The translations under genes and the position numbers were made by a program. From contig CAVZWF010000006.1 of the NCBI GenBank assembly GCA_963778865.1, positions 135,959-199,958 of the forward strand: a stretch of DNA of 64,000 nucleotides, in the 5' to 3' direction. This stretch comes from an uncultured beta proteobacterium. Lineage in GTDB: Bacteria > Pseudomonadota > Gammaproteobacteria > Burkholderiales > SG8-41. How positions within the stretch are numbered: position 1 is the stretch's first letter; the number at the start of each line of letters is the position of its first letter. Below, piece by piece: positions 13,376 to 58,316 of the stretch. The notes beneath the pieces were generated by a model. That model did not search any database. It was given only the letters and a program-made list of their open reading frames with translations, and was not told where the DNA came from.

Positions 13376-13499
13376 CAGCCGCAGATAAACGCGGATACAC
13401 GCTGATGAGACAAAAGCCGAAGCACTAAAGGCGGTTACAGCATCGATACGTGATGCGCTTCTCGAAGTATCTGTGTTTATCTGCGTTTATCTGCGGCTC
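13376..13499. repeat. inverted-repeat element, GCAGATAAAC-decamer family, copy 1
   Basis: Left arm AGCCGCAGATAAACGCGGATACACGCTGAT, right arm GTATCTGTGTTTATCTGCGTTTATCTGCGGCTC, with a central spacer of about 60 nt. Same family at 18411/19751 (split), 24444, 43210, 56683 and 58217. Confidence 0.75.
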
Positions 13500-14439: not shown

Positions 14440-15341
14440 CTACCAGACCGCAACACCGGGCACTTTCACCCGCGTGCGATAGACCGAATTGAACGTCGTG
14501 ACATAGAGCGAGCACCCAGTCCGCATCCCCCCACGCCATGTTGGTGCTGTGCCCGGGGATCTTCAGGCGGCCGAGTAGCCGGCCATCGGGCGCGATGATG
14601 TGGACGCCGCCGGGACCCGTGCAATACACGTTGCCTTCGACGTCGACTTTCATGCCGTCGGCAACACCACCCTCGGTGCCGGTCATTTTGTGAAAAAGGC
14701 GCCCGGGTCCCACGCTGCCGTCGGCATTTACGTCGAACGCGCGGATCAGCGCGAGCCGCGTATCGTTCACGTACAGGAGTTTCTCGTCGGGCGAGAACGC
14801 GAGCCCGTTCGGATAGGTGCAATCTGCGATCACCAGCTGCACTTCGCCTGCCGTCGGGCGTCAATCGAAACACGCCCATCACGTCGAGATAGCGCTGCAC
14901 GTCCTGCGCCACCATGCCGGGTATCACCAGCCCGCCCGCCGAATCGGTCCAGTAGACGGAGCCGTCGGAGCGCACGACGATGTCGTTGGGGCTGTTGAAT
15001 TTCTTGCCGTCGTATTTCGACGCGATGGTGGTGATGCTGCCGTCGTGCTCGAAACGGAATATCGTGCGATTGCACCAGCCCGCGACAGTCAGCCTCCCCG
15101 CTTTGTCGAACGTCATGCCGTTGGCGTGGCCCGACGGCCGCAGCACGACTTCGCGCCCGACGCCGGGTTTCCACTTCCAGATCGTGTTGCCGATGATGTC
15201 GACCCAGTAGAGCTGCCCCGTGCGCTTGTCCCACACCGGGCCTTCGCCGAACGTGAGCCCGTGCGCGATGCGGTCGAGCGGCGGGTCGCGGTCCACCAGG
15301 CGTTCGAGGCCCGGCGCGACGAAATCAATGTCCACCCGCAC
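14440..15341 (-). pseudogene. SMP-30/gluconolactonase/LRE-like protein, copy 1, at least 2 frameshifts as given
   Basis: 14466..15341 (..LTFGEGPVWDKRTGQLYWVDI..NSPNDIVVRSDGSVYWTD) continues in 13526..14842 (YPNGLAFSPDEKLLYVNDT..ADGMKVDVEGNVYCTGPGG). A third frame gives SLYVTTFNSVYRTRVKVPGVAVW* ending at TAG 14440-14442. Confidence 0.75.
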
Positions 15342-17029
15342 CTCCGGGCGCCCACGCCGTCGGCGCCAGCGCGTTCTCCTCGGTGACGACGTCGATGACG
15401 ACCGGCCGGTTCATGGCGAACGCGCGCGGCAGCAGTTCCTTCAGTTCACCCGGCTTGGTCGACGCGGAATCCGGCGCAACCGAGCGCTTCCGCGACCTTC
15501 GAGAAATCGACCGACTTCTGAAAACGCCAGATCTCGCCCGCGCGGCCGTTCGCCTTGCCCTTGTAAGCGGCATCGACCAGCGGAATTTCCTGGTTGAGCG
15601 AACTGTTGTTGTTGACCACCACGACGAGGTTGATGCCGTAGCGCGCCGCGGTTTCCAGTTCCGCCAGATGATAGTAAGCGCCGCCGTCGCCGGTGAAGCA
15701 CACGCACCGCGCGGTCGGGCAGCGCGCACTTGACGCCCATCGCGCCGGGCAAACCCCAGCCCAGCGAGCCCGCGCAGCGCACGAAGCCCTGGCGCGGGTT
15801 CGAGAATTCGATCATCTGCCCGGTCCACATGCCGGCGTGCCCCGTGTCCGACACCACGACGCCGTCGGCGGGCAGCGCCTGCGAAATTTCGCGGCACACG
15901 CGCTCGGGCCGCATCGGCACCGCATCGGAATTCATCATGCGTTCTGCATCAGCGCGCCACTCGGCCACCAGTTGCTGCACGCGCGCGACCCACGCCTTCG
16001 CGCCGGCGGACGGCTGCGCCGGCGCCGCGTTGATCATGTGCCGCAACGTGACCTTGGCGTCTCCCAGCAGCGAGACCGCATTCGGATAATTGCGGCCCAG
16101 TTCCTCGGCGTCGATGTCGAGCTGTATCACCTGCGTGCCCGGCGCGGGCACTTTCCAGCTGACGGTCACCTGGCCGCCGGTGTGGCTGCCGATGAAGAAC
16201 ACGAGATCGGCTTCCGACACGGCCTTGGTTCGCGCAGATGCGCGAATACACGCCGACCACGCCGACCGCGAGCGGATTTTCGTCGAGTATCGCGGCTTTC
16301 GCATTGAGCGAGGTCGCCACCGGTATTTGCAGCTTCTCGGCGAATTCGACCAGCTCGGCTTGCGCGCCGGACGAAACCACGCCGCCGCCCGCCACGATGA
16401 TCGGCCGCTTGGCCTTGGCGAGCAGCGCCAGTGCGTCGCGCACGCGCGCGGGCTCGGGCTCGGGGCGAAACGCCGGCACGCACTTGAACTGGTCTTCGAC
16501 CAACGGCGCCAGATCGGTTTCCATGTCGCCGATCGCGCCGCCATGCAGACCGCTCAAGCGCAGATGCGCGGGCCCCGGCGCGCCCGACGTCGCCGCGCGA
16601 AACGCCTGGCGCATGAGATCGGGCAGATCGCTTAACGTCGTCGACCTGCGCGCTGAACTTGGTCACCGCGTCGAACTGGCCGAAGTCTTCGATCTCCTGA
16701 TAAGCGTGGCGGTAGCGCGACCCCGGAACCGAGCCGCCGGTGATCGCCATCATCGGCGAGCACGCCATGAACCCGTCGCGCAGTCCCGCCGCGAGATTGG
16801 AGGCGCCGATCTGCTGCGCCATGCACACGCCCGGCTTGCCGCTCGCGCGCGCATAGCCGTCGGCCATGTAGGCGGCGGCCTTTTCGCCGTGCGTCATGAT
16901 CTTGCGGATCTTGAATTCATCCATTTCCGCAAGCGCGCGCATCATGATCGTCGGCACGTAAAAGACGTGCGTGACGCCGTAGCCGTGCAGCACTTCGGCG
17001 AACAAACGCGAGCCGGTGGTTTTTGCCAT
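15325..17029 (-). pseudogene. thiamine-pyrophosphate-dependent enzyme (acetolactate synthase large-subunit-like), at least 4 frameshifts as given
   Basis: Pieces 16166..17029 (MAKTTGSRLFAEVLHGYGVTHVFYVP..), 15949..16614, 15441..16544, 15446..15703 (GDGGAYYHLAELETAARYGINLVVVVNNN, the TPP-binding motif) and 15325..15897 (C-terminus) lie in different frames. Confidence 0.8.
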
Positions 17030-17191
17030 TCTGAATCTCCTCCGTTAAACGGACAGCAATACTACCAATGAAATAAAACTTGCGGAAAATATTTTTTGCT
17101 TTTCGCAGGTGGGTCGAGATTATAATCGGCGGCATCGTGAAAGAGTGAAGGAGTGAATCCGCTCACCCTAACCCACGCACGGAGCACCCGC

Positions 17192-17846: not shown

Positions 17847-18395
17847 ATGAACAAACCAGTCAAATCCGTTCGCCGCATCGTCTGCCTCGATGAAAACGAA
17901 AAGTCCCGCGCGATTTCCGACGCGCCGGTACGCGATGTGCACACCGACCCGGCGCGGCCGGGCTACGCTTCGACGCGCATCTGGGTAACCGACCGCACGC
18001 CGGCGCGCATCGAAGGCATCACCGACACGCTGCACCTGCCGCACACGCTCGAACCGCCGCCCGGCGGCTCGGTGTGCCGCATCGTCACGTTTCCGCCCGA
18101 CGCCGCGTTCAAGGGCAACGTCGGCGCGCGCGAAGTGCAGGCGTTTTTCGCCGCGATGGGTTCACCGCATGCGTCGACCTATTCCGCCGCTGCGCCGCAT
18201 CCGTACATGCAGAAGACGCGCACACTCGATCTGTGCCTCGTGCTCGCAGGCGAGATCACGCTCGTGCTCGACACGGAGGAAGTGCACTTGCAAGCAGGCG
18301 ACACCGTCGTGCAGCGCGGCACCAATCACGCGTGGAGCAACCGCTCCGATAAACCGTGCACGATCGCGTTATCGATGCACGACGGAAAATATTAA
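17847..18395 (+). CDS. cupin domain protein (paralog of 17192-17752)
   Basis: Intact 182-aa ORF. GDTVVQRGTNHAWSNRSD matches the GDVVVQLGNWHGWRNP strand of its neighbour. Confidence 0.7.
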   Translation: MNKPVKSVRRIVCLDENEKSRAISDAPVRDVHTDPARPGYASTRIWVTDRTPARIEGITDTLHLPHTLEPPPGGSVCRIVTFPPDAAFKGNVGAREVQAFFAAMGSPHASTYSAAAPHPYMQKTRTLDLCLVLAGEITLVLDTEEVHLQAGDTVVQRGTNHAWSNRSDKPCTIALSMHDGKY

Positions 18396-18410: not shown

Positions 18411-18450
18411 GGCCGCCGATGAACGCAGATAAACGCCGATGGGATTCAAA
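18411..18450. repeat. left arm plus inner flank of a split GCAGATAAAC-family element
   Basis: GGCCGCCGATGAACGCAGATAAACGCCGATGGGATTCAAA. Its reverse-complement partner lies 1.3 kb away at 19751-19781. The inner GATTCAAA matches the spacers of copies 43210 and 58217. Confidence 0.65.
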
Positions 18451-19591: not shown

Positions 19592-19750
19592 CACTTGTGG
19601 CAACACGTCTGATCGGCCGGGAACGCCTGCACTCCAACAACCGGTAATTGGCCGACGCGTTCTGCACGGCAAATCCGGGACGTTAAGTCCCGCGTACCCG
19701 GATCGCGCTGCATTCTTGTGCTACCTGTTGTCATCGTATCGATTTCTTAC

Positions 19751-19781
19751 GTATCCGCGTTCATCGGCGTTCATCGGCGGC
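19751..19781. repeat. right arm of the split GCAGATAAAC-family element
   Basis: GTATCCGCGTTCATCGGCGTTCATCGGCGGC is the reverse complement of GCCGCCGATGAACGCCGATGAACGCGGATAC, which matches the left arm at 18411-18441. Confidence 0.65.
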
Positions 19782-19836
19782 AAATCATGTTTTTAATTTT
19801 GCAGCTCGATCCAGACCAGCCCGATGCGCGAACACG

Positions 19837-19962
19837 CTACTCCGCTTTCGCGCCGATTTCCTTCGCGACCGTTGCCCACTTCGCGAGTTCGGCGCGCAAG
19901 AACGCTCCGAATTTCTGCGGCGTGCTACCGACCGGCTCGAAGCCGAGCGCGGTGATGCGGAT
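19837..19962 (-). pseudogene. 3-prime fragment of a Bug-family gene (last ~40 codons)
   Basis: Encodes ..RITALGFEPVGSTPQKFGAFLRAELAKWATVAKEIGAKAE*. By my hand alignment it is about 90% nt-identical to the 3-prime end of the full Bug gene at 20615-20740 (..RITVLGFEPVGSTPQEFGVFLQAELAKWAKVAKEIGAKAE*). Confidence 0.8.
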
Positions 19963-20027
19963 TGTTGGGCCGCCGATAAATAGCCAGTGGAGTATACTAT
20001 TACGATTGTTAGTGCTGGAGTTCTGCG

Positions 20028-20246
20028 ATGAAGACACAGCTGGTCACCATCGATCCCGAAACCCACAGCGGAACGCCCGTATTCGTTGGCACGCGGGTCC
20101 CGGTCAAGACGCTCTTCGATCACCTTGAAGCTGGAGACTCGTTGGAGGTCTTCTTGGATGACTTTCCGTCCGTCAGTCGCGAACTGGCGGTAGCAGTGCT
20201 TGAAGAGGCGCGCACCGCACTCATACCGGATGCGTATCCTGCTTGA
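20028..20246 (+). CDS. DUF433 domain protein (antitoxin-like partner of DUF5615)
   Basis: 72 aa. IDPETHSGTPVFVGTRVPVKTLFDHLEAGDSLEVFLDDFPSVS is the DUF433 signature. Overlaps the next gene. Confidence 0.8.
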   Translation: MKTQLVTIDPETHSGTPVFVGTRVPVKTLFDHLEAGDSLEVFLDDFPSVSRELAVAVLEEARTALIPDAYPA

Positions 20247-20551
20247 CGAGGATCTCCCGCGTCGTCTCGCGACAATGCTGGTTGGTCATGAGGTATCCAC
20301 CGTTCAGCGCAGCGGGTGGACAGGCATCAAGAATGGAAAACTGCTCGGACTCGCCGCCTCTCGAATTCGATGTGTTCCTGACGATGGATGGGAACCTTGA
20401 GTTCCAGCAGAACCTTGCCGCCCTGCCAATTGCCGTGCTTGTGGTTGAAGCAGTCAGCAATCGGATGGAACACCTCGCACCGCTGGTGCCCGGTATCCTG
20501 AGGGAACTCGGCCATATTCCACCCAAGTCCCTACAGAAGGTTGGCGCCTGA
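20230..20551 (+). pseudogene. DUF5615 (PIN-like) toxin-like protein, one frameshift about 20355-20362 as given
   Basis: MRILLDEDLPRRLATMLVGHEVSTVQRSGWTGIKNGKLLGLAA (track ORF 20200..20400) continues in the frame of 20243..20551 as EFDVFLTMDGNLEFQQNLAALPIAVLVVEA... Confidence 0.7.
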
Positions 20552-20614
20552 CCGGGCGCTGAACGCGACCGCCTAACAGCGGCGCCGCGCTTGCGGATGT
20601 CATGCGCGGGCTTG

Positions 20615-21587
20615 CTACTCCGCTTTCGCGCCGATTTCCTTCGCGACCTTCGCCCACTTCGCGAGTTCCGCCTGCAGGAACACGCCGAATTCCTGCGGCG
20701 TGCTGCCGACCGGCTCGAAGCCGAGCACGGTGATGCGTTCGAGCACGTCCGGCAGCTTCAAGTCCTTGACGAGTCTCCGCATTCAGCTGCGTGACGATCG
20801 CCGCGCGGCGTGCGCGCGGGCACCAGCACGCCGTTCCACGCCGGCGCGTCGAATCCCGGCAGGCCCGACTCCGCGATCGTCGGCACGTCGGGCAGGCTCG
20901 CCGAACGCTTGATCGTCGTCACCGCGAGCGGACGTATGCGCCCGGCCTTGATTTGCGGCACCGCCGACGGCGCCGACCACGAAATTGACCTGCACCTGCT
21001 CGCCGATCAACGCGGTGACGCCCTGGGCGACCGTTTTGTACGGCACGTGGACGATGTTGACACCGGTGCGGCTCTTGAACATTTCGCCGATGAGATGTCC
21101 GGGCGAGCCGTTGCCGCCCGAGCCGTAATTCAACTCGCCGGGCTTCGCGCGCGCGAGCTTCACCAGTTCATCCACCGACGTCACCGGCACCGCCGGATGC
21201 ACCGACAACACGAACGGTATGGTGCCGAGCAAAGTCACCGGCGCGAAATCGCGCACCATGTCGTAACGTGAGCTTGAAGAAATTCGGATTGATGGTGTGC
21301 GTGCCGGTCGCGAGCAACAGCGTGTAGCCGTCCGCCGACGCGCGCGCGACCGTTTCCGCCGAGATCATGCCGCCGCCGCCGCCGCGCTCTTCGACCACGA
21401 CCTGCTGCCCCCATGCGGCGGTCAGTTTCGGCCCGAGGATGCGCGCCATCGCGTCCGGCCCGCCGCCGGTGACGAAGCGGATCGGCTTCGCCGGATATTG
21501 CTGCGCAAGTGTCGACGTTGCGCTCAGCACTGCAATGGTTGCCGCCGCCAACACGTGCCAGTGCGTCGCACTAATTGTCCGCCTCAC
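20615..21587 (-). pseudogene. Bug/TctC-family solute receptor, at least 3 frameshifts as given
   Basis: Pieces 21168..21587 (GTG start, ..STLAQQYPAKPIRFVTGGGPD..), 20783..21259 (..NYGSGGNGSPGHLIGEMFK..VHVPYK), 20758..20961 (..ESGLPGFDAPAWNGVLVPARTP) and a final frame ending GAKAE* at TAG 20615-20617. Confidence 0.8.
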
Positions 21588-23971: not shown

Positions 23972-24466
23972 ATGGACCATTCCGTCGAAACCACGCTGAT
24001 CGTCAACGGCACGCCGACCACGCGGCGCATCGAGCCGCGCCAGCATCTGATCGATTTCCTGCGCGAGGACCTCGGCCTCACCGGCTCGCACACCGGCTGC
24101 GAGCACGGCGTGTGCGGCGCGTGCACGGTGCGCGTCGACGGCAAAATCGTGCGCGGCTGCCTGATGCTCGCCGTGCAGGCCGCAGGCAAGCGCGTCGACA
24201 CCATCGAAGGCCTGTCCGACTCCGGCGAAATCGCCGAGCTGCAGCGCGCGTTCCACGAGCGCAACGCGCTGCAGTGCGGCTTCTGCACGCCGGGCATGCT
24301 GATGGCGGCGCAGGACCTTATCCTGAAGAACCCGCGCGCCACGCGCGACGAAATCCGCGAGCACATCTCGGGCAATTACTGCCGCTGCACCGGCTATCAG
24401 GCGATCGTCGATGCGATTGAAAACGTGCTTAAGGCAAATGCGGTTGCCGCGGATAAACGCAGATGA
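23972..24466 (+). CDS. molybdenum hydroxylase [2Fe-2S] small subunit (CoxS-like), cluster 1
   Basis: ATG 23972, intact. GCEHGVCGACTV and CGFCTPGM cluster motifs. The last residues ADKRR* and the stop codon lie inside the repeat element 24444-24564. Confidence 0.9.
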   Translation: MDHSVETTLIVNGTPTTRRIEPRQHLIDFLREDLGLTGSHTGCEHGVCGACTVRVDGKIVRGCLMLAVQAAGKRVDTIEGLSDSGEIAELQRAFHERNALQCGFCTPGMLMAAQDLILKNPRATRDEIREHISGNYCRCTGYQAIVDAIENVLKANAVAADKRR

Positions 24467-24564
24467 ACGCAATTGACAATGGACAACGAAATCCTGATGC
24501 GATCGCCTTGAATTCGTTGTCAATCAGTCGATTATCCGCGTGTATCTGCGTCTACGCAGTGCAA
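24444..24564. repeat. inverted-repeat element, GCAGATAAAC family, copy in the S-L intergenic region of cluster 1
   Basis: Left arm TTGCCGCGGATAAACGCAGATGAACGC, right arm ATTATCCGCGTGTATCTGCGTCTACGCAGTGCAA, with an inner palindrome GACAACGAA / TTCGTTGTC. Confidence 0.7.
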
Positions 24565-24575
24565 TGGTAACTGAC

Positions 24576-26929
24576 ATGAGCGCCGACAAAAGCCCGGCTA
24601 CATCGGCCAGAGCGTGCCGCGCGCGAACGCGAAGCGCCTGCTGCAGGGGCGCGGCGCCTACACCGACGACCTGCGCCTGCCGCGTCTCGCGCACGTCGTG
24701 TTCTTCCGCAGCCCGCACGCGCACGCGCGCATCAGGAAGCTCGACTTCACGCGGGCGCGCAGCCATGCCCGGCGTGATCGCGGTCGTCGACGGCAAAGCG
24801 GTCGCCGCGTACTGCAAACCGTGGGTCGCGGTGCTCGGGCATCTGAAAGGCATCAAGTCGGCGCCGCAGCATCCGATCGCCATCGACCGCGCGTGCTGGC
24901 AGGGCGAAGCGGTCGCCGCAGTGGTCGCCGAATCGCGCGCGCAGGCCGAAGACGCCGCCGATCTGATCGAAGCCGAATGGGAGGAACTGCCGGTCGTCGT
25001 CGACATGGCGGACTCGCTTGCCGGCAAGTACGTGATTCATCCGGAACTCGGCGACAACATCTGCTTCACGCGCACGCTCGACACCGGCGAAGTCGACGCG
25101 GCGTTCGCCAAAGCGGACGTCGTGGTCGAGGAAACCTACGAGTTCGGCCGCCACACCGGCGTCACGCTGGAAGGCCGCGCGCTGCTCGCCGACTACAACG
25201 CGGCCGAACACGCGCTCACGGTGTATCACTCGACGCAGGCGCCGCACATGATGCAGGACATCTTCTCGCGGCATCTCGACATTCCGGAAGGCAACGTGCG
25301 CGTGATCGCGAAGGACGTCGGCGGCTCGTACGGCATCAAGGTGCACGTCTACCCCGACGAGATGGCGACCGCGGCGCTCTCGGTGATGCTGAAGCGCCCG
25401 GTGAAATTCATCGCCGACCGGCTCGAATCGTTCCTGACCGACATCCACGCGCGCGAGCACAAGGCGAAACTGCGGCTGGCGTGCACGCAAGGCGGGCGAC
25501 ATCCTCGCGTTCGATCTCGACGACCTGACGAGCATCGGTCCCTACTCCGTTTATCCGCGGACGAGCGGGATCGAGGGCAACCAGGTCGTCAATCTCACCG
25601 GCGGCCCGTACCAGCACCAGCAATACCGCGCGAAGCTCAATGTCGTCTTCACCAACAAGAACGTGACCTGCCAGTACCGCGCGGTCGGCCATCCGATTGC
25701 GGTGTCGATCACCGAATGCATCGTCGATCTCGCCGCCGAAAAACTCGGCATGGACCCCGCCGAATTCCGCCGCCGCAACCTGATTCGCGACGACGCCTAT
25801 CCGTACACCTCGGCGGCGGGCATGAAGTTCGAAAAGCTGTCGCACCACCAGGCGCTCGACAAGCTGCTCGCGCTGATGGATTACAAGAAACTGCGCAGCG
25901 AGCAGGAAGCGCTGCGCAAAAAAGGCGTCTATCGCGGCATCGGGCTCGCCGCGATGATCGAAGTCACCAATCCGTCGCCCGCGTTCTACGGCGTGGGCGG
26001 CGCGCGCATTTCGGCGCAGGATGGCGCGACCCTGCGCTTCGAGCCGACCGGCATGGTGACGTGCATGGTGAGCGTCACCGAGCAGGGCCAGGGCACCGAG
26101 GGCATCTTCGCGCAGATCGCCGCCGACGCGGTCGGCGTCAGCATCGACAAGGTGCGCGTCATCACCGGCGACACCGGCACCACGCCGTACGGCGGCGGCA
26201 CCTGGGCGTCGCGCGGCGCCGGCATCGGCGGCGAGGCGGTGCTGCAATCGGGCAAGGTCCTGCGCGCGCATATACTCGAAGTGGCCGCGGCGATACTGCA
26301 AACCGGCGGCGAGATGCTCGACGTGAAGAACGACAGCGTGGTCGATGTGCGCACCGGCGAGGCGAAGCTGACGCTCGCCGAAGTCGGCCGCATCGCGTAC
26401 TTCCGGCCCGACACGCTGCCGATGGATTTCCAGTCCGAGCTGGTGGTGACGCGCCACTACACGCCGCGCGGCTACGGATTTGCCTTCACCAACGGCATGC
26501 AGGCGTCGCTCGTCGAAGTGGACACCGAGACGGGCTTCGTCAAACTGCTCAAGCACTGGTGCGTCGAAGACTGCGGCACCATCATCAATCCGCAACTCGT
26601 CGACGAGCAGATCCGCGGCGGCATCGTGCAGGGCATCGGCGGCGCGCTGTTCGAGCACTGCATCTACAGTCCCGAAGGCCAGCTGCTGAACGGCAACATG
26701 GCCGAGTACCTGGTGCCGATGGCCGGCGAGATGCCGGACATCGAGGTCGGCTCACGTCGTCACGCCGACCAAAACCTCCGAGCTCGGCGCGAAAGGCGCG
26801 GGCGAAGCCGGCACCGCCGGCGCGCCGGGCGCGGTGATGAACGCCATCAACGATGCGTTGCGGCCGTTCAAGGCGCGCGTCACCGCCCAGCCCGTCACGC
26901 CGGAGCGCATCCTGCAAGGCGCTGGGTAA
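24576..26929 (+). pseudogene. molybdenum hydroxylase large subunit (xanthine dehydrogenase / CoxL-like family), cluster 1, several frameshifts as given
   Basis: ATG 24576 (MSADKS..), slip at 24588-24597, then IGQSVPRANAKRLLQGRGAYTDD (track 24614..). Pieces 24540..26837, 25663..27234 and others. The C-terminus GAKGAGEAGTAGAPGAVMNAINDAL..RILQGAG* ends at TAA 26927-26929. Confidence 0.85.
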
Positions 26930-26935
26930 AGTTTA

Positions 26936-27828
26936 GTGTCCGGTTTAGTGTCCACTTTCGATTCCACCGCCTTCGGCAAACGCTTCACGCATCGCTTTGC
27001 CGCGGCGCGCGACATCAAAATCCATTACGTCGAGGGCGGCAGCGGTCAGCCGGTGCTGCTGGTACCCGGCTGGCCGCAATCGTGGTACGCGTGGCGGCAC
27101 GTCATGCCCGCGCTCGCCGAGCGCTACCGCGTCATCGCCATCGATCCGCCGGGCCTCGGCGACTCGGAAAGACCCGCGGCCTACGACACTGCGACCATCG
27201 CGACTTACCTCGACGCGTTCCTCGAATGCGCTGAAACTCGAGCGCATCGATTTCGTCGGCCACGACATCGGCGCGTGGATCGGTTACGCGTATGCCGTGC
27301 GCCATGCAGGCCGCGTGCGGCGGCTCGCGCTGATCGACGCCGCCATTCCCGGCATCGCGCCGGCCGACGCCTTTGCGCTGACACCCGACCGCATCAACAA
27401 GACGTGGCATTTTTCCTTCAATGCGCTGCCCGATTTGCCGGAAGCACTCGTCGCCGGACGCGAACGGCTGTACCTGGCGTGGCTCTTCAACGCACGCTCG
27501 ATCAACAAGTCCGCGATCGACGACGCCGCGATCACCGAATACACGCGCGTTTATGCGGCGCCCGGCGCAATGAGCGCGGGCTACGCGTACTACCGCGCGA
27601 TTTTCGATTCGATTGCGCAGAACCGGGAAACCGCGGCGAACAAACTGACGATGCCGCGTGCTGGCGGTCGGCGGCGCGCAGTGGCTGGGCCCCATGATGG
27701 AAAAGATGGTGGCGCCGGTCGCGCGCGATTTACGCGTGGAAATCGTCGAAAACTGCGGCCATTTCGTGCCGGAGGAAGCGCCGCAGGCGCTTGCGCGCCT
27801 GTTGCATGACTTCATCGAGCAACCGTAA
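26936..27828 (+). pseudogene. alpha/beta hydrolase (epoxide hydrolase / haloacetate dehalogenase-like), 2 frameshifts as given
   Basis: GTG 26936. ..IHYVEGGSGQPVLLVPGWPQSWYAWRHVMPAL.. (26936..27697), FVGHDIGAWIGYAYA nucleophile-elbow region (26997..27809), and a last frame ..VEIVENCGHFVPEEAPQALARLLHDFIEQP* ending at TAA 27826-27828. Confidence 0.8.
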
Positions 27829-27914
27829 ACGCCGCCGACGCACGCGGGCTGGCAGACGTGCCGCCGCCCGTTAGTTCAACCGGCAAGCGACCGACGGGCG
27901 CAGCGGCAAGCGGG

Positions 27915-28771
27915 TTACTCGGGAATCGTGCCGAGCATGTAGGACGCTTCGAGGATCGCACTCGGTCGGCCGAAGCTCGCAAACCAGCGGCCGAAAATTT
28001 CGACGATTTCACCGCTGCCGTAAATCTGGGAAAGCCCCGTATTGACCGCAAGGCGGAAGGACGCATCGCCGCGCGGCAACACGATGCCGTACGGTTCGAA
28101 CGACAGTTCGTCTTCAAGCAACGCCAGCGACTTCGGATCCTTGGCTTTGACCGTCGACCCCACCAGCAGCAGCTTGTCGCTGGCGAACGCGTCCGCCTTG
28201 CCCTCGTCGAACGCCGCGAACGCCTCGTCGCGGGATTTGAACGGGACCACGGTCGCGGTGAGCTGGCGGCGCTTTAGTTGTTCGTTGATCGCGCGCTCGT
28301 TGGTGGTGCCGGCGATGACCGCGATCTTCTTGCCCGACATGTCGGAGAGCGAACGCAGGCCGGACGCGGTCTTGACCAGGAGCCCGGTGGTCTCGACGAA
28401 AATATAGCTCGAGAAATCCACCAGCTTCAGGCGCGAGAGCGTCACCGTGCTGGCGCCGCACTCCATGTCGGCCAGGCCTTTGACGACGGCCTCGAAGCGC
28501 GTTTGCGTTGCGACCGGCACCCATTTGATCTGCAGATTCGGCACGTTGATCTGGCGTTCGATCGAGTTGACTACCCGCTTGCATAAATCGATGGAAAACC
28601 CGACCACCTGCTTGTTGTCGTCGGTGAACGAGAACGGGATCGCGTCCGCGCGGTAGGCGATGGCGATGGTCTTCGTCTCGGCAATCTTCTTCAGGCGGCC
28701 GTCGAGAGCCTGCGCCTGAACGGCGCCGGCGGCGAGCAGCAGCGAAATGGCGAAAATGCGTTACGTAACAT
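27915..28771 (-). pseudogene. polar amino acid ABC transporter substrate-binding protein (SBP_bac_3 family), one frameshift in the signal peptide as given
   Basis: ATG 28771 (MLRNAFSP..), slip about 28745, then ISLLLAAGAVQAQALDGRLKKIAETKTIAIAYRADAIPFSF joins track ORF 27915..28607 (GFSIDLCKRV..). Confidence 0.8.
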
Positions 28772-28865
28772 GAAATCTCCCTGAAATATATCGGTTAGCG
28801 GCGCGACAGGATAGCGACTTTTCATGACGGTCGCAATCGCGGCGCGCGGTGAAGGGTAACCATGA

Positions 28866-28985
28866 CGAAAACAAGTGGTGGCGCCGGTTGCGCCCGATTT
28901 GTGTGCGGAAATCGTTGAAAACTGCGGCCATTTCGTGCCGCGGGAGGTGCGCCGAATCGTGAAGGAATTCCTCGACAAGGCGTAA
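28866..28985 (+). pseudogene. 3-prime fragment of an alpha/beta hydrolase gene (paralogous to the end of 26936-27828)
   Basis: Reads RKQVVAPVAPDLCAEIVENCGHFVPREVRRIVKEFLDKA*, against MEKMVAPVARDLRVEIVENCGHFVPEEAPQ.. in the full gene. The first ~75 nt are clearly alignable (roughly 85-90% by eye). Confidence 0.7.
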
Positions 28986-29071
28986 CACTATGTCCAATCT
29001 TACCGAATAATTAGGGCATGCCGCGGTTGCCGCAGACGCCGGCCGCTGGGCGCCCGCCGGAGCAGTTCAAC

Positions 29072-29446
29072 ATGAGCCGAAATACTTATTTAAGCTTCGC
29101 ACTTATGACTGATGAAAAACAAGTAGTTCAGGACGAACAATACATGACATACACGATTGCCTCGTTGGGGCCCAGTAGCTGGTTCGTCGACAGCGCCAAG
29201 GGCACTTCGGGATATTCTTTCCATACGCTGGCGGAAGCGGAACGATTCGCGATCACGCTCGCGCGGCGCAACACTCCGAGCAAGGTGTGCACGCTGGGCA
29301 GCGGCGGAGAAATCGTCGACGTACTGGTTTTTGACTCTGCCGACCGACACCGGCCGCTAAACCGCGCAGTAGCGCTCCTGTATCGATCTTGTCGGCGAGC
29401 AGATTGGCGGCCGTATCGGTGTGCACGATCACGCCCTGGTCCATGA
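29072..29446 (+). CDS. hypothetical small protein (weak DUF2188-like pattern); 3-prime end uncertain
   Basis: Lower-GC ORF MSRNTYLSF..SWFVDSAKGTSGYSFHTLAEAERFAITLARRNTPSKVCTLGSGGEIV. The part beyond about 29360 overlaps the convergent ABC ATPase gene and is probably not real; an alternative frame stops at TAA 29358-29360. Confidence 0.3.
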   Translation: MSRNTYLSFALMTDEKQVVQDEQYMTYTIASLGPSSWFVDSAKGTSGYSFHTLAEAERFAITLARRNTPSKVCTLGSGGEIVDVLVFDSADRHRPLNRAVALLYRSCRRADWRPYRCARSRPGP

Positions 29447-38747: not shown

Positions 38748-39526
38748 ATGCCCACTATCCAGGTAAACGGCGTCGCCGTCGACATCACGCAAATCGGCGC
38801 GGGGCGCGACCTCGTGCTGCTGCACTCGCTGCTCGCGGACCGCACCGCGTTCGACCGCGTCGCGCCGGCGCTCGCGAAGAAACACCGCGTGACGCTGGTC
38901 AATCTGCCGGGCTATGGCGCGTCAGCCCCGCACGGCGCGAGCGTCGAGGATTACGCCGATCACGTCGCGGGCTTGCTGCGGGCGCTGAAACTGCCGCGCG
39001 AAACCGACGTGCTCGGCAACGGCCTCGGCGGCTTCATCGCGATTGCGCTCGCGTGCCGTCACGGCGACTTCGTTCGACAAACTCTTCATCGCCGATTCGC
39101 TCGCGACTTTTCCGCCCGCGGGCAAGGAACCGCTGCGCCTGATGGCGGAGCGCGTGAAACAACAGGGCATGAGCGCGGTGCTCGACGCCGCGATCAACCG
39201 CATGTTCCCGCCGGCGTTCGTCGCGGCCAACGCCGAACTCGTCGCCGAGCGCAAAGCGGTACTCGCGAAGGCCGACCCCGCCTGCTTCAGCCGCGCGTGC
39301 CTGGCACTCTCTCAAGTCGATCTCAGACCGTTGCTCGCCGGCATTCGCAATCCGACGTTCGTGATGGTCGGCGCGCTCGACGGCGCAACTCCCGCGCTCG
39401 CTCGCGCGCGAACTCGCGAACGGAATTCCCGGCGCCGGATTCATGGAGATTCCCGAGTGCGGGCATTGCCCGCAACTCGAAAAGCCGGACGTTTTTGTGA
39501 AGACGGTCGAAGAGTTTCTGCGCTGA
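38748..39526 (+). pseudogene. alpha/beta hydrolase (3-oxoadipate enol-lactonase-like), at least 2 frameshifts
   Basis: ATG 38748 (MPTIQVNGVAVDITQIGAGRDLVLLHSLLADRTAFDRV..GNGLGGFIAIALA), middle piece in 39043..39534, and a last frame RELANGIPGAGFMEIPECGHCPQLEKPDVFVKTVEEFLR* ending at TGA 39524-39526. Confidence 0.75.
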
Positions 39527-39589
39527 ACCGATAAGCCGCAGCGGGAAGATGCGCCACCGCGGGGCGCCCGTTAGTTGCGCGCGACAGGC

Positions 39590-40867
39590 CTACTCCCGCA
39601 GGAACTCTGCCCCCGTAGCCGGCATCAAAAACTCTTTGTTCATTTCTTTGAGCGTGTTGATACCCAGCATCGCCATGTCGCGGTCGATTTCGTCTATCAG
39701 CAGCTTGACGGCATGATCGACGCCGCGCTGGCCGGCGACGGCCGCCGCGCACAGGAACGGGCGGCCGATGAAGCAGAAATCCGCGCCGAGCGCGAGGGCT
39801 TTCAGAACGTCGGTGCCGCGCCGGAAGCCGCTGTCCATGATCAGCGTCATGCCGCCCGCCGCTTCGCGCAAGCCCGGCAACACGCGTAGCGGCGACACGG
39901 TGCCGTCGAGTTGCCTGCCGCCGTGGTTGGAAACCATGATGCCGTCAACTCCGTGTTCGCGCGCCATGCGCACCACGTCTTTGTGCAGCACGCCTTTCAA
40001 CAGCAGATTGCCTTTCCAGATTTTGCGCATATGCGCGACGTGTTTCCAGGTGAGCCGGTCGCGCCGGCCGTAGCCGCGCATGGCTGTTTTCGAAATCAGC
40101 GGCACGCGCGGCCCCAGATTTTCGACGTGCGGCATGCCGTCCTTGATCAGCGTTTTCAGGAACATGCCGAAGAGCCACCGGGGTCTGACCATGCAGTCCC
40201 ACGCCAGACGCGGCGTCGGGCGCAGCGGATTGTTGTAGCCGGCACGCACATTGTTTTCGCGGTTGGCGGCGACTTGCACGTCCACGGTGACCGCGATGGT
40301 TTCGAAGCCCGCTTTCGCGGCGCGCTCGAAGGTTTCGCTGATGCGATCTTCGTCGCCCGGCAGATAGGCCTGAAACATCGCGGTACTGCCTGCGGCTCTC
40401 ACGTCCTCCATTTTCATCAGCGACGCGCCGCTCATCATCATCGGAATATTCGCCGCCGCCGCCGCGCGTGCGAGCACGACGTCGCCCTGATACGTCGCGA
40501 TCGAGGTGCCGCCCATCGGCGCAAAGCCGAAGGGCGCGCTGTAGGTGTGGCCGAAGAGTTCGGTTTTCATGGTGCGCTGCGTGGTGTCCACCAGCGGCTT
40601 GGGCACGAAGCCGATTTCCTCGAACACATCGCGATTGCCGCGCAGCGACATATTGTTTTCAACGCCGCCGGTGATATAGCCGTAAATCGGGCGCGGCAGG
40701 ATCTTGCGCGCGTGGTCGATAAAATCCTGCAACGACAGGTAGTCGCGCAGGCCGCGCGGCAGCGAGCGTTTGTCGACGAACGAGAGTCCGCCGACGCTGT
40801 CGGGCTTGGGGGCGAGGTCGGGGGCTGCGGTGCTGACTGAGGCGGTTGTATTCATGGTATCGGCCAT
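39590..40867 (-). CDS. FMN-dependent alpha-hydroxy acid dehydrogenase (L-lactate / mandelate dehydrogenase family)
   Basis: Intact. Start taken at MADTMNTTASV (40867); 40855 is also possible. Motifs ..SNHGGRQLDG.. and ..DSGFRRGTDVLKALALGA.. Confidence 0.85.
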   Translation of the reverse strand: MADTMNTTASVSTAAPDLAPKPDSVGGLSFVDKRSLPRGLRDYLSLQDFIDHARKILPRPIYGYITGGVENNMSLRGNRDVFEEIGFVPKPLVDTTQRTMKTELFGHTYSAPFGFAPMGGTSIATYQGDVVLARAAAAANIPMMMSGASLMKMEDVRAAGSTAMFQAYLPGDEDRISETFERAAKAGFETIAVTVDVQVAANRENNVRAGYNNPLRPTPRLAWDCMVRPRWLFGMFLKTLIKDGMPHVENLGPRVPLISKTAMRGYGRRDRLTWKHVAHMRKIWKGNLLLKGVLHKDVVRMAREHGVDGIMVSNHGGRQLDGTVSPLRVLPGLREAAGGMTLIMDSGFRRGTDVLKALALGADFCFIGRPFLCAAAVAGQRGVDHAVKLLIDEIDRDMAMLGINTLKEMNKEFLMPATGAEFLRE

Positions 40868-40939
40868 TGGAAGGATGGAAAAGGCGTAATTTCCCGGATG
40901 CCGGCAATTATAATCGCACCGAGAGATCACAGTCTCGCA

Positions 40940-41118
40940 AACCACGCATTCATATCGCCGATATCGGGACCAGCGGCCTTATCGACGCGCTGTGCGCGCG
41001 CGAACTCGCAAAAGGAATCCCCGGCGCCGGATTCATGGAGATATCCGAGTGCGGGCATTGTCCGCAACTCGAAAAGCCGGGATTCTTCGCAAAAACCGTC
41101 GAAGAATTTTTGCGCTGA
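40940..41118 (+). pseudogene. 3-prime fragment of an alpha/beta hydrolase gene (copy of the end of 38748-39526)
   Basis: Reads ..ARELAKGIPGAGFMEISECGHCPQLEKPGFFAKTVEEFLR*, against RELANGIPGAGFMEIPECGHCPQLEKPDVFVKTVEEFLR* in the full gene. About 86% nt identity over 40994-41118 by hand alignment. Confidence 0.7.
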
Positions 41119-41240
41119 CGCTACAGCACTGAGCAATACCTGTATAGCATTAAGAGCTGACTCGGCACACCTTTGTGCTTCGCTATTGATGATTCGGCGC
41201 CACTCAACCAGTCAATCGTAGACCGGTGCGCTGGAACCTA

Positions 41241-41774
41241 TTACTTTTTTCTGCTCGCCGAGCTGATATTCATCAGCGTTTTATTCACATTGGCTTCCGC
41301 TGCATCTGTTCCCTGTTTGGCGGCCTTACTCATGGCGTCGAACGCATTCTGGGAGGACGCGAACGCTGCCTTCATCGCATTCATCGCGGGTTCCGCGCCA
41401 CCGGGAGCGTGCTCGAAAAGTTTTGCCATCGCACCTTCCATCTCATGACGCATCGCATTGAAACGCTCCTCCATGAGCGCGGCAATCTCGTGCTGTGTAT
41501 GCGCTGCGATCTCGTAGACTTTGCGCGAATAGTCGACCGCGCTCGCAACCCCCTTCTCGGCGAGTGTGTTCGGCATGACCGGCATGCCCTGCGGATTATG
41601 ACCGGACGCTAGCGTTTGCACGGAAGCTGCCTGGTCGGTTGCGAAAGTCTTTGCTGCCTCCATTTGCAGGTTCAGCAGTTGGTTCGCCGCCTCTGCCGAA
41701 AGTTTGGCCAACTTCATAGCAGCATCCATGTTGCCTTTACCTACCAAGCTCATGTCTTCGATCGGATTAGTCAT
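41241..41774 (-). CDS. phasin family protein (PHA granule-associated)
   Basis: ATG 41774 (MTNPIEDMSLVGKGNMDAAMKLAKLSAEAANQLLNLQMEAAKTFATDQ...). Ala/Lys/Met-rich helical composition typical of phasins. Intact, somewhat lower GC. Confidence 0.7.
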   Translation of the reverse strand: MTNPIEDMSLVGKGNMDAAMKLAKLSAEAANQLLNLQMEAAKTFATDQAASVQTLASGHNPQGMPVMPNTLAEKGVASAVDYSRKVYEIAAHTQHEIAALMEERFNAMRHEMEGAMAKLFEHAPGGAEPAMNAMKAAFASSQNAFDAMSKAAKQGTDAAEANVNKTLMNISSASRKK

Positions 41775-42027
41775 TACCGTTTCCTTTATGTGAGGAAGTG
41801 CGTGTCGAACAATGCATCCGCCACACCCGCACAAGGCAAAGCGTGCATGGCCCCCCATTATCCCCCGAAGCTCTGTCGACTGCCGATAAACTAGCAGCAG
41901 TGTTGCAATGACCGATTGAACCCGCCGTCGATAGCGGACGTTCAGGACACGCAATTCATGCCGCACCGGTATCCTGATTTTCCACGGTTGTGGGCTCGAT
42001 TGAAATCCTCAGAAAGTGGTGTCCACC

Positions 42028-43175
42028 TCAGCGCTTGATTTTCAGCAAGCGCGCCGCGTTTCCGCCCATGATCAGATCCTTGTCGGCGCGCGCAAGACGC
42101 GGCACGCTTTCGATCAGTTTCACCGGGTTGTCCTCGCCCATGTCGAACGGGTAGTCGGTGCCGAGCACGACGTGTTCGGGGCCGTACTTGTCGATCAGGT
42201 GGCGCAGCATATCCGTGTCGAACGTGATGGTGTCGAAATAGAATTTCTTCAGGTAGCTCGACGGCGCCTTCTTGATGACGATACGGCAATCGGGCCGCGC
42301 GCGGTGGGCGTGGTCCATGCGCGCCCAGTAATGCGCGAGGTAGCCGCCCGAGTGCGGCAGCACGATCTTCAATTTCGAATTGCGCTCCATCACGCCGTCG
42401 AATATGAGGTGACTTACCGCCACCGTGGTTTCCAGCGGGTTGCCGATCACGTTGTTGAAGTAGTGGTCCATCAGACGCTCGCCCTGCGTGTAGCCGAGCG
42501 GGTGCATGAAGATCACGATGTCGAGTTCCTGCGCCTTGGCGAAGAATTTTTCGAGGCCCAGGCTGGGATCGGTCAGGTCCTTGCCGTTCACGTTGGGCAG
42601 TATCTCGACGCCGCGCATGCCGAGGTTGTTCACGCAATGCTCGAGTTCCGCCACCGCGAGGTCCGCGTTCTGCAGTGGCACCGTGCCCATCGCGACGAAG
42701 CGGTCGGGCCACGTCGCGGCGATTTCGGCGAGGCGCTCGTTGGCCATGCGCGCGAGTTCGCGGCCGAAATCCGGCTCGCTCCAGTAGATGCACTGGTTGG
42801 GCGCCGGGCACACCGCCTGTATGTCGATGCCCATGCGGTCCATGTCCTTCAGCCTCACCTCGATGGTCGAGAGCTTGGGCCCGCGATCCTGGATCTGCTT
42901 GACGTTGACTTCGCGTGTCAGCGCGTTGGCGAATACTCCGGATGGCTCGATACTGGCTCGCGTTCAGCGTGCGCGACTTTCGCGGCGATCGCCGGGTTCT
43001 GGTAATGGCAGTGCAGGTCGATGCGCAGGCTGCGCCCCTTGCGGTCGCGCACGACCTTGGTCGACGCTGCCGGGCGCGATTTGGCGACGGTTTTCGTCGA
43101 GCCCTTGCGCAAGAGCAGCGCGGGACGATGGCGATGCGTGGAATCGATACAGGCGGGAGTGCAGGTGAACATCAT
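42028..43175 (-). pseudogene. amidohydrolase-2 family protein (ACMSD-like decarboxylase/hydrolase), one frameshift about 42925
   Basis: 42918..43175 carries the N-terminal metal motif RIDLHCHY. 42028..42858 carries the rest (..MHPLGYT..LPHSGGYL..GTDYPFDMG..). The N-terminal extension MMFTCTPACIDS.. is uncertain. Confidence 0.75.
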
Positions 43176-43209: not shown

Positions 43210-43382
43210 TTGCCGCAGATAAACGCGGATGAGAATCAAAGCCAAGTCATCAAGGCCACGAATTATCACGGAAAGCACAAAGCGGAACAATACAATTGAT
43301 TTCAATAATCAAGAATTATTCGGCAATCCTTTTGATTATTTTTTTGAATTCATCTGCGTTTATCTGCGTTTATCTGCGGCTA
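43210..43382. repeat. inverted-repeat element, GCAGATAAAC family, largest compact copy
   Basis: Left arm TTGCCGCAGATAAACGCGGATGAG, right arm TTCATCTGCGTTTATCTGCGTTTATCTGCGGCTA, with an AT-rich spacer of about 115 nt beginning GAATCAAAGCC. Confidence 0.75.
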
Positions 43383-57729: not shown

Positions 57730-58238
57730 GCGAAAAGCTGCACGCGGTCACGGTTGAAGTCAACGGCGTGCGCCGCACGGCGCAGGTGCCCGCGCGCCTG
57801 TCGCTCGTCGATTGGCTGCGCGACGAACTGCGGCTCACCGGCACGCACGTCGGCTGCGAGCACGGCATCTGCGGCGCGTGCTCGGTGCTGCTCGACGGCG
57901 AGCCGGTGCGTTCCTGCCTGATGTTCGCCGTGCAGGCCGACGGCCACCGCGTGACCACCGTGGAAGGCCTCGCCAATGCCGACGGCTCGCCGAGCGTATT
58001 GCAGGACAGCTTCTGCCACACGCACGCGCTGCAGTGCGGCTACTGCACGCCGGGCATGCTGATCGCCGCGCAGGCACTGCTGACCGCCGTGCCGCAACCG
58101 ACCGACGCCGAGATACGCGAAGCGATCGGCGGCAATCTGTGCCGCTGCACCGGCTACCAGCAGATCGTCGATGCGGTCAAACACGCCGCCGCGCGGCTCG
58201 CAAACGACAATTCATCAGCCGCAGATAAACGCAGATGA
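57726..58238 (+). CDS. molybdenum hydroxylase [2Fe-2S] small subunit (CoxS-like), cluster 2
   Basis: GTG 57726 (VSEKLHAVTVEVNG..). GCEHGICGACSV and CGYCTPGM motifs. The C-terminal AADKRR* and stop codon lie inside repeat 58217-58316. Confidence 0.9.
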   Translation: MSEKLHAVTVEVNGVRRTAQVPARLSLVDWLRDELRLTGTHVGCEHGICGACSVLLDGEPVRSCLMFAVQADGHRVTTVEGLANADGSPSVLQDSFCHTHALQCGYCTPGMLIAAQALLTAVPQPTDAEIREAIGGNLCRCTGYQQIVDAVKHAAARLANDNSSAADKRR

Positions 58239-58316
58239 ACGCAGATAGATTCAAAACGGCCGAAGCATCATCGAATTGGTTTTTCATCCGCGTTTATCTG
58301 CGTGTATCTGCGGCAA
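58217..58316. repeat. inverted-repeat element, GCAGATAAAC family, copy in the S-L intergenic region of cluster 2
   Basis: Left arm CAGCCGCAGATAAACGCAGATGAACGCAGATAGATTC (three ~10-nt units), right arm TTTTCATCCGCGTTTATCTGCGTGTATCTGCGGCAA. Confidence 0.75.

Follow-up and report, generated by a model that had tools for sequence, protein, structure and literature searches.

The locus described here lies in a stretch of 64,000 nucleotides (the window; contig CAVZWF010000006.1, positions 135,959 to 199,958) of the metagenome-assembled genome (MAG) of an uncultured Burkholderiales bacterium. This assembly, G000 in the following, comprises 15 contigs with 3.98 Mb and was scored 64% complete. On the minus strand at 20615-21587 there is a gene for a solute receptor of the TctC/Bug family, which matches Pfam PF03401 on two pieces and has to be read through four assembly frameshifts. 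Behind its stop codon follow a small cassette with a predicted toxin-antitoxin (TA) pair and then a second copy of the last part of the Bug gene.

The two copies of the gene end were found by repeat search and alignment within the window. They form a direct repeat of 136 nt (19824-19959, the fragment, and 20602-20737, the gene-attached copy; both on the minus strand) with 89% identity, no gaps and a spacing of 778; there are 15 substitutions and no indels. Read on the minus strand, each copy contains the last 40 codons of the receptor, a TAG stop codon (CTA on the plus strand, at 19837-19839 and 20615-20617) and about 13 nt more. The original prediction had estimated about 12 mismatches in about 124 nt for the last 40 codons or so, with a few similar bases past the stop. 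Proper alignment gave 11 mismatches in the 123 nt of coding sequence and stop (91.1% identity), and the similarity extends about 13 nt beyond the stops. The C-terminus encoded by the fragment is identical to that of the Bug protein in 35 of 40 residues. Dozens of Bug paralogues exist in this genome, with 70-82% conservation of their 3' ends. Because no other paralogue end exceeds 82% against either copy, the pair exceeds the background of the family. The duplicated gene end around the TA cassette at this place (site 1) is thereby confirmed as real. A diversity-generating retroelement with a variable and a template repeat was also considered and rejected, as the mismatches are of all types and not specific for adenine, and no reverse transcriptase is present in the interval.

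The 642 bp between the copies contain only two open reading frames (ORFs), both on the plus strand and hence opposite to the Bug gene, as had been claimed. The first (20028-20246) encodes an antitoxin-like DUF433 protein of 72 aa (Pfam PF04255, E=5.7e-17) that is 92% identical to a homologue in a Burkholderiales MAG. The second (20230-20551) encodes a toxin-like DUF5615 (PIN-like) protein and overlaps the antitoxin stop (overlap 20230-20246). Pfam PF18480 matches its N-terminal piece with E=4e-6 and also matches the intact orthologue in L031, a locus with a homologous cassette. An extra base near 20362, flagged by metagenome contigs, breaks the DUF5615 gene into two frames. Judged from the domain matches and the gene order, the DUF433 gene with the overlapping DUF5615 gene has the make-up of a predicted type II TA pair. 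Neither a transposase nor an integrase nor any other mobility gene was found in the 642-bp insert, in line with the original prediction that no recombinase is visible.

The ends of the cassette could be defined by comparison with homologues. A relative of the DUF433 protein is encoded at 52 public-genome loci, the 16 closest of which were aligned with the window. Upstream of the genes, the plus-strand region 19960-20027 contains a core-like motif GTTGGGC (19964-19970), the conserved sequence CCGCCGATAAA and a -10-like box TATACT; the homology to the cassettes of L031, L035 and other loci starts in this region, at GTTGGGC, four bases from the end of the fragment. Downstream, the tail 20552-20601 (plus strand) contains an R''-like GCCTAAC (20569-20575) and is common with the L031 cassette up to exactly 20601, where the gene-attached repeat begins. 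Because the homology with independent insertions (L031, L035) stops at the repeat boundaries, the insert is a discrete unit with defined ends. A scan of 19700-20800 for promoter and terminator consensus sequences called nothing. The motif CCGCCGATAAA (19967-19985) resembles an arm, GCCGCCGATGAAC, of a hairpin repeat family of the window, and 19967-19985 had been put forward as a possible partial repeat arm. This did not hold: unrelated genomes have the conserved motif in front of their homologous TA cassettes as well, where it precedes the TATACT box, and it thus belongs to the cassette rather than to the local hairpin repeats.

The quality of the assembly affects how the genes of this locus are to be read. 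The Bug gene is readable only with four frame changes. Compared with proteins from three relatives, almost all genes of the window are spread over two to five frames (e.g. 24587-26926 and 15328-17095), and indels occur about once every few hundred bases. Metagenome contigs lack single bases at 20362, 20775, 20803-20805 and 20971, exactly at the frame breaks. These contigs come from other samples, the best public runs containing at most 8% of the sampled words, and no reads across the two cassette junctions were obtained from the other-sample runs. The frameshifts of the Bug gene are single-base insertions of the assembly and not decay; a Bug pseudogene was rejected, since frame breaks exist throughout the window and coincide with the extra bases relative to the metagenome contigs. 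Single-nucleotide insertions of this kind probably also explain why 15 long contigs were scored only 64% complete. In such an assembly the automatic frame picking for all repeat pairs and the strand plot of GC content at third codon positions (GC3) were noisy, and both were used as guides only.

With an indel every few hundred bases, the duplication itself might be suspected to be an artefact of an error-rich long-read metagenome assembly. However, the copies differ by substitutions (11%) and not by indels, and single-base indel errors cannot yield 15 substitutions in 136 nt. Moreover, the same structure was found in three MAGs that were assembled from short reads and have no frameshifts (see below). 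An artefact is hardly credible and largely excluded.

Five relatives have genomes that are collinear with the window to the left and right of site 1. In G010 the stop of the neighbouring cupin gene (window position 18395) lies 12 bp from the stop of a single Bug gene. In G003 the gap between the cupin and Bug stops is 57 bp, with a small hairpin (AGCCGCCGATGAACGC/GTTCATCGGCGGCT) and about 55 nt. In a metagenome contig from run X3, position 18394 is connected to 20615 through 7 other letters. An empty site with one Bug end thus exists in G003, in G010 and in one metagenome contig, and because these show a short joint of cupin and Bug gene, 2.2 kb of the window are extra. The extra DNA consists of two insertions, as a separate segment of 1.3 kb with low GC content splits the hairpin into a left arm (18411-18426) and a right arm (19757-19782). 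While the site in G003 holds the minimal hairpin only, the loop of the window hairpin holds these 1.3 kb.

The comparison with the relatives also tells the two copies apart. The right hairpin arm with the adjoining flank (19757-19823, no strand assigned) aligns, up to the stop of the fragment, with the sequence downstream of the Bug orthologue in G003 and in a further genome, G007. Beside the gene-attached copy, no such alignment to the ancestral flank exists except over the last 13 nt. Of the two copies, the fragment alone adjoins the ancestral flank and is therefore the original gene end, displaced from the gene but still in place. Every orthologue is closer to the gene-attached copy than to the fragment. 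Of the 11 coding differences, six are changes of the fragment that are absent from all orthologues; E>K and K>T, which affect conserved residues, are among them, and this indicates decay of the fragment. Another four form one block that matches alleles segregating among the species. It had been claimed that the cassette inserted into the 3' end of the gene while a replacement end kept the gene intact. The empty site and the displaced original end bear out the first part; intactness is unprovable in an assembly so rich in errors.

The fragment could also be what a deletion left of a second tandem Bug paralogue, or the end of some other paralogue. Bug genes are numerous in this genome and conserved in their 3' ends (70-82%), and two relatives, G019 and G020, do have a second Bug gene at site 1. 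In these genomes, however, the extra gene is convergent, on the other strand, and the empty sites of G003, G010 and the metagenome contig adjoin one Bug gene. Two Bug genes on the same strand, the arrangement that the original prediction named as speaking against it, were seen in none of the relatives compared. The fragment carries the flank of the orthologous gene, and the remnants of all such sites (see below) are always 3' ends of about 100-230 nt. A paralogue remnant is therefore very improbable at site 1 and, like the assembly artefact, largely excluded.

Within the genus, the site behind the Bug gene varies. The extra Bug genes of G019 (L011:8790-9750) and G020 (L013:8960-9960) lie between the cupin gene and the Bug orthologue, with 6-20 nt between the stops of the extra and the orthologous gene. 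The hairpin belongs to a repeat family with arms made of units of about 10 nt (GCCGCAGATAAACGC and similar). Members in the window, besides the split one at 18411-18426 and 19757-19782, are found at 13377-13497, 24446-24560, 43212-43380 and 58218-58315. A further member (L037:2799-2941) comes from a Comamonadaceae MAG, where arms with GCGGCGGATAAACGC stand directly upstream of a homologous TA cassette.

The same topology had been reported to recur at 26936-28985 and 38748-41118, and both sites turned out to be real. At site 2 (27671-28950, plus strand) the end of an alpha/beta-hydrolase gene (27671-27781) is followed by an SBP_bac_3 gene on the opposite strand (27918-28757) and by a 3' fragment of the hydrolase gene (28839-28950). 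The repeat is 73-85% identical with one 1-nt indel, and the fragment runs to a stop of its own, with the last 50 nt encoding a C-terminal tail that differs from the full gene. Behind CoxL (26936-29139), where the window has hydrolase, SBP gene and hydrolase fragment, G019 has the SBP gene without the hydrolase, and in G020 the hydrolase gene is accompanied by about 1 kb of other genes but not by the SBP gene. Site 3 (39403-41118, plus strand) consists of the end of another alpha/beta-hydrolase gene (39403-39526), a gene for a flavin mononucleotide (FMN)-dependent dehydrogenase on the opposite strand (39590-40945) and the hydrolase 3' fragment (40995-41118). Its copies have 124 nt with 86% identity and end at the same TGA stop. 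The whole stretch 39530-42030 is absent from G020.

A self-comparison of the whole genome gave 33 isolated pairs of short direct repeats at a spacing of 0.3-6 kb. Seven of the 33 passed a strict test for a common stop codon at the end of the repeat, which site 3 just missed, although frameshifts add noise to such a test; altogether G000 contains at least eight such scars. The small inserts are mostly TA pairs of other families, namely VapBC (twice), ParDE, Phd/ParE, DUF4160/DUF2442 and a HigBA-like pair. Behind a second gene of the Bug/TctC family (G000:C3:565075-566184), for example, a DUF4160/DUF2442 pair is followed by a 140-nt copy of the gene's own 3' end with 94% identity. A ParDE pair lies between two complete tRNA-Leu(CAA) genes, which are part of a 174-nt direct repeat with 87% identity (G000:C6:55537-56817); here the repeat ends at the 3' end of the tRNA-Leu gene. 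At least 7 of the 10 well-defined cases have a repeat end within about 15 nt of the stop codon.

The three short-read MAGs show that the scar is not confined to G000. Two of them have it around a cassette of the same DUF433/DUF5615 family: in L031 between two copies of a clpB end (229 nt, 89.5%) and in L044 between two ends of an aspartoacylase-like gene (158 nt, 95%). In the third, G022, a different insert of two genes on the opposite strand lies behind the site-3 hydrolase orthologue, and a 161-nt copy of the gene end with 86% identity comes next. The opposite orientation of the insert, originally described as part of the topology, is found at sites 1-3 of the window but is not a rule, as the cassettes of L031 and L044 are oriented like the host gene. 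Among all hydrolase ends, the fragments of G000 and G022 resemble each other least (71.8%). Because of this low similarity they do not group and are not descendants of an old tandem paralogue, which also argues against paralogue remnants. Directly upstream of the hydrolase gene of G022 there is an array of 7-nt GCTGAAT-like units (L024:2340-2445), with repeat families spaced 14 and 21 nt.

The cassette has some features of integron cassettes. Its left end GTTGGGC, conserved in homologues, fits the integron-cassette start G|TTRRRY, and the homologous cassettes in L038 and L039 adjoin attC-like hairpins. On another contig of G000 there is an apparently intact integron integrase gene (G000:C1:157000-157938; TIGR02249, 470 bits, open frame of 369 aa), and one attC-like hairpin was observed near it (G000:C1:156299-156424). 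The cassette could thus have been inserted by a site-specific recombinase acting in trans, the integron integrase of G000 or another tyrosine integrase, and the repeats would then be attL and attR. The Bug breakpoint G|TT fits the GWT consensus of attG sites as given in a preprint (bioRxiv 10.1101/2022.09.11.507474), and the ParDE pair between the two tRNA-Leu genes would suit such an enzyme as well. Yet a complete attC was found in the window cassette neither by a scan for core sites and folding nor by an Rfam search; between the Bug breakpoint and the core TT there are five extra bases (GATTG); and attG insertion as described gives no target duplication, none being mentioned in the preprint text that was searched. 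No common motif was seen at the junctions of 12 loci, the target genes are unrelated, and the inserts of sites 2 and 3 are ordinary metabolic genes. Insertion by a recombinase in trans is therefore unlikely.

Two known systems come close to this explanation. Integron cassettes that lie outside of integrons (SALINs and attG insertions; Loot et al., bioRxiv 10.1101/2022.09.11.507474) resemble our locus in the gene-sized TA cassette, the GTTRRRY-like left end, the homologues with attC-like sites and the integron integrase in the genome; they differ from it in the complete attC, which the window copy lacks, and, as attG insertion is described, in having no 136-nt duplication. Islands that integrate into tRNA genes or gene 3' ends are likewise flanked by direct repeats that include the gene 3' end, and the gene remains intact. 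In contrast to these islands, there is no integrase in or beside our insert, the inserts have only 0.6-2.2 kb, and the targets are many and unrelated.

The closest known case is the insertion of restriction-modification (R-M) gene units with long target duplication (Nobusato et al. 2000, Gene 259:99; Furuta, Abe and Kobayashi 2010, PMC2853133). R-M units are small addiction units without mobility genes, flanked by repeats of about 100 bp, with an empty site in a relative, and the mechanism of their insertion is unknown (PMC2853133; review PMC3874152). Their repeats range from tens to hundreds of bp and often span the stop codon, and the target gene stays intact. Site 1 agrees with this in its direct repeat of more than 30 bp (136 nt, 89%), in the empty site with one copy and in the absence of a mobility gene from the insert. 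It differs in the cargo, which at our sites is type II TA pairs of many families; in the preference for the gene 3' end, at which one repeat boundary lies in at least 7 of 10 well-defined cases; and in the divergence of the copies, which are 77-95% identical with a synonymous bias and not near-identical. Age together with allelic replacement, or a foreign gene end, could give such a divergence.

As the main alternative, the scar could be a long target duplication made when the cassette inserted behind the stop codon, with about 136 nt copied to both sides, perhaps through widely staggered breaks or through the joining of two sister duplexes. The copies would have been identical at birth; later the fragment would have decayed, and the gene copy would have undergone allelic replacement. 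The topology, the empty site, the lack of mobility genes and the frequent inclusion of the stop codon match the R-M insertions (PMC2853133), each fragment is nearest to its own neighbouring gene copy, and 6 of the 11 coding differences at site 1 are decay specific to the fragment. One TA family is flanked by repeats of Bug, clpB and an aspartoacylase-like gene, which would be simpler if the duplication were intrinsic to insertion. On the other hand, near-identical and thus young pairs are missing among the 33 isolated repeat pairs, repeat ends coincide with stop codons much more frequently than insertions at random intergenic positions would produce, and no mechanism for the duplication is known. 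Two further observations on the divergence of the copies speak against copies that were identical at birth, and we regard this explanation as possible but doubtful.

The first is the position of the differences within codons. Across the loci the copies are 77-95% identical, with a bias towards synonymous differences. Over eight loci the differences are distributed 18:21:73 over the codon positions, i. e. 65% are at third positions, compared with an expectation of 44% (p=5e-6). Selection on the gene copy is included in this expectation; with a GC-to-AT mutation bias it could reach about 50%, and the excess persists. At site 3, 12 of 17 differences are at third positions (synonymous divergence dS 0.63, nonsynonymous divergence dN 0.06), and in G022 17 of 22 (dS 0.62, dN 0.05). 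This excess means that the copies diverged mostly as working genes, i. e. as two alleles.

The second is a mosaic tract that abuts the cassette. The 536 nt of the Bug 3' part beside the cassette are 89.5% identical to G019 and 83.5% to G003, whereas the cupin gene to the left (88.1% to G003, 81.1% to G019) and the DUF1330 gene to the right (88.8% to G003, 84.2% to G019) are nearer to G003. Counting the sites at which one of the two relatives agrees with the window, the ratio is 56:24 in the Bug 3' part and 18:33 in the DUF1330 gene (Fisher p=1.3e-4). The switch of the nearest relative indicates a tract of foreign ancestry that extends from the cassette into the gene and ends inside it.

These patterns suggest that the scars were made by host recombination with DNA of related species and not by a dedicated enzyme. 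The favoured interpretation, to which we give an even chance, is that the cassette entered together with a replacement Bug end from a related lineage by host recombination and that TA addiction guards the insert. The 642-bp DUF433/DUF5615 cassette, whose family would be an integron-type cassette in other genomes, would have arrived from a closely related lineage with a copy of the Bug end attached. Homologous recombination of the host would have anchored the incoming DNA in the Bug gene. This could have happened with a linear fragment, one end of which recombined by homology while the second joint was illegitimate (homology-facilitated illegitimate recombination, HFIR), or, alternatively, by a single crossover with a small circle. 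The second joint would have fallen 123 nt before the resident stop codon. As a result the Bug gene would be intact and would end in imported sequence; behind it would lie the cassette, followed by the last 40 resident codons as a decaying fragment on the old flank.

Recombination between direct repeats normally removes whatever lies between them. The TA pair would kill cells that lose the insert, so that TA cassettes would survive in such scars. This would account for the dominance of TA pairs among the small inserts, since addiction would punish their loss, and the enrichment of TA pairs in turn suggests that addiction keeps the inserts in the scars. Likewise, repeats would end near the stop codon because the homology of donor and recipient would end there. 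The close agreement between cassette ends and repeat boundaries (a difference of at most 4 nt on the left and none on the right) supports entry with a replacement end as well. The empty site, the repeat and its divergence pattern, the native flank of the fragment and the recurrence of the scar are direct observations; from them we infer a donor of a related lineage, host recombination of one of the two types and a stabilizing role of the TA pair.

Several points weigh against this interpretation. Taken alone, site 1 has a weak codon-position signal (2:4:5) with dN/dS of about 0.3, and the fragment is not nearer to G003 than to G019. The donor form, a Bug gene followed by the cassette without duplication, was not found in 40 relatives or at the 52 TA loci. 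Recombination is inefficient between sequences that are 10-15% apart over about 130 nt, and the original arrival of the cassette 13 nt behind the stop codon of the donor lacks an account. Synonymous bias and mosaic could equally stem from ordinary recombination that replaced the allele of the gene copy later, with nothing imported when the cassette inserted. Since the copies of a direct repeat are formally interchangeable, the term replacement end is to be read as a conclusion from divergence patterns. The junctions at site 1 rest on one error-rich assembly; that scars of this type exist is supported by independent cases at other loci.

Entry of the cassette with a replacement end by host recombination would have counterparts in two other settings. 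Integration of the Campbell type or by HFIR also leaves an insert flanked by a duplication of the homologous segment and needs no dedicated recombinase. In conjugation experiments with E. coli, single crossovers with shortened circles gave duplications of 109-950 bp and outnumbered true HFIR (Amarir-Bouhram et al. 2011, PMC3240628). These were laboratory plasmids with identical homology, whereas here the process would be read from natural scars with diverged homology.

The second setting is the displacement of gene ends in polymorphic toxin loci, where a full gene is likewise followed by displaced 3' fragments with common sequence. C-terminal displacement in loci of the type of rhs and contact-dependent inhibition (CDI) was reportedly described by Jackson et al. 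in 2009. For rhs, CDI and type VI secretion system (T6SS) effector-immunity loci, one-sided homologous recombination has been proposed, with the arrays spreading by ordinary recombination (Kirchberger et al. 2017, PMC5361080). There, however, the new end is a different toxin domain and the displaced end keeps its immunity gene, whereas at site 1 both ends encode the same Bug C-terminus and the cargo is an unrelated cassette.

How small chromosomal TA pairs without a mobility gene move is poorly understood, and no description of this scar for classical TA pairs was found in the literature searched. The signature, a diverged duplication of 100-230 nt of a host gene 3' end, can be searched for in any genome, and it ties TA cassettes to the long-target-duplication scars so far described for R-M units, another class of addiction genes. 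For annotators it means that short fragments of gene ends beside TA pairs are to be read as insertion scars and not as remnants of lost paralogues. Tentatively, and with less confidence than we have in the account of site 1, it may be proposed that TA cassettes, many of them shed from integrons, move without a recombinase. Such a cassette would leave with a piece of the end of the preceding gene, dock by homologous recombination at the same gene in related cells, restore this gene, displace the old end and be held by addiction. If this is true, the gene end plus TA pair would propagate itself as a unit and offer soil Burkholderiales a general way to gain genes at 3' ends, as the TA counterpart of the life cycle proposed for R-M units.

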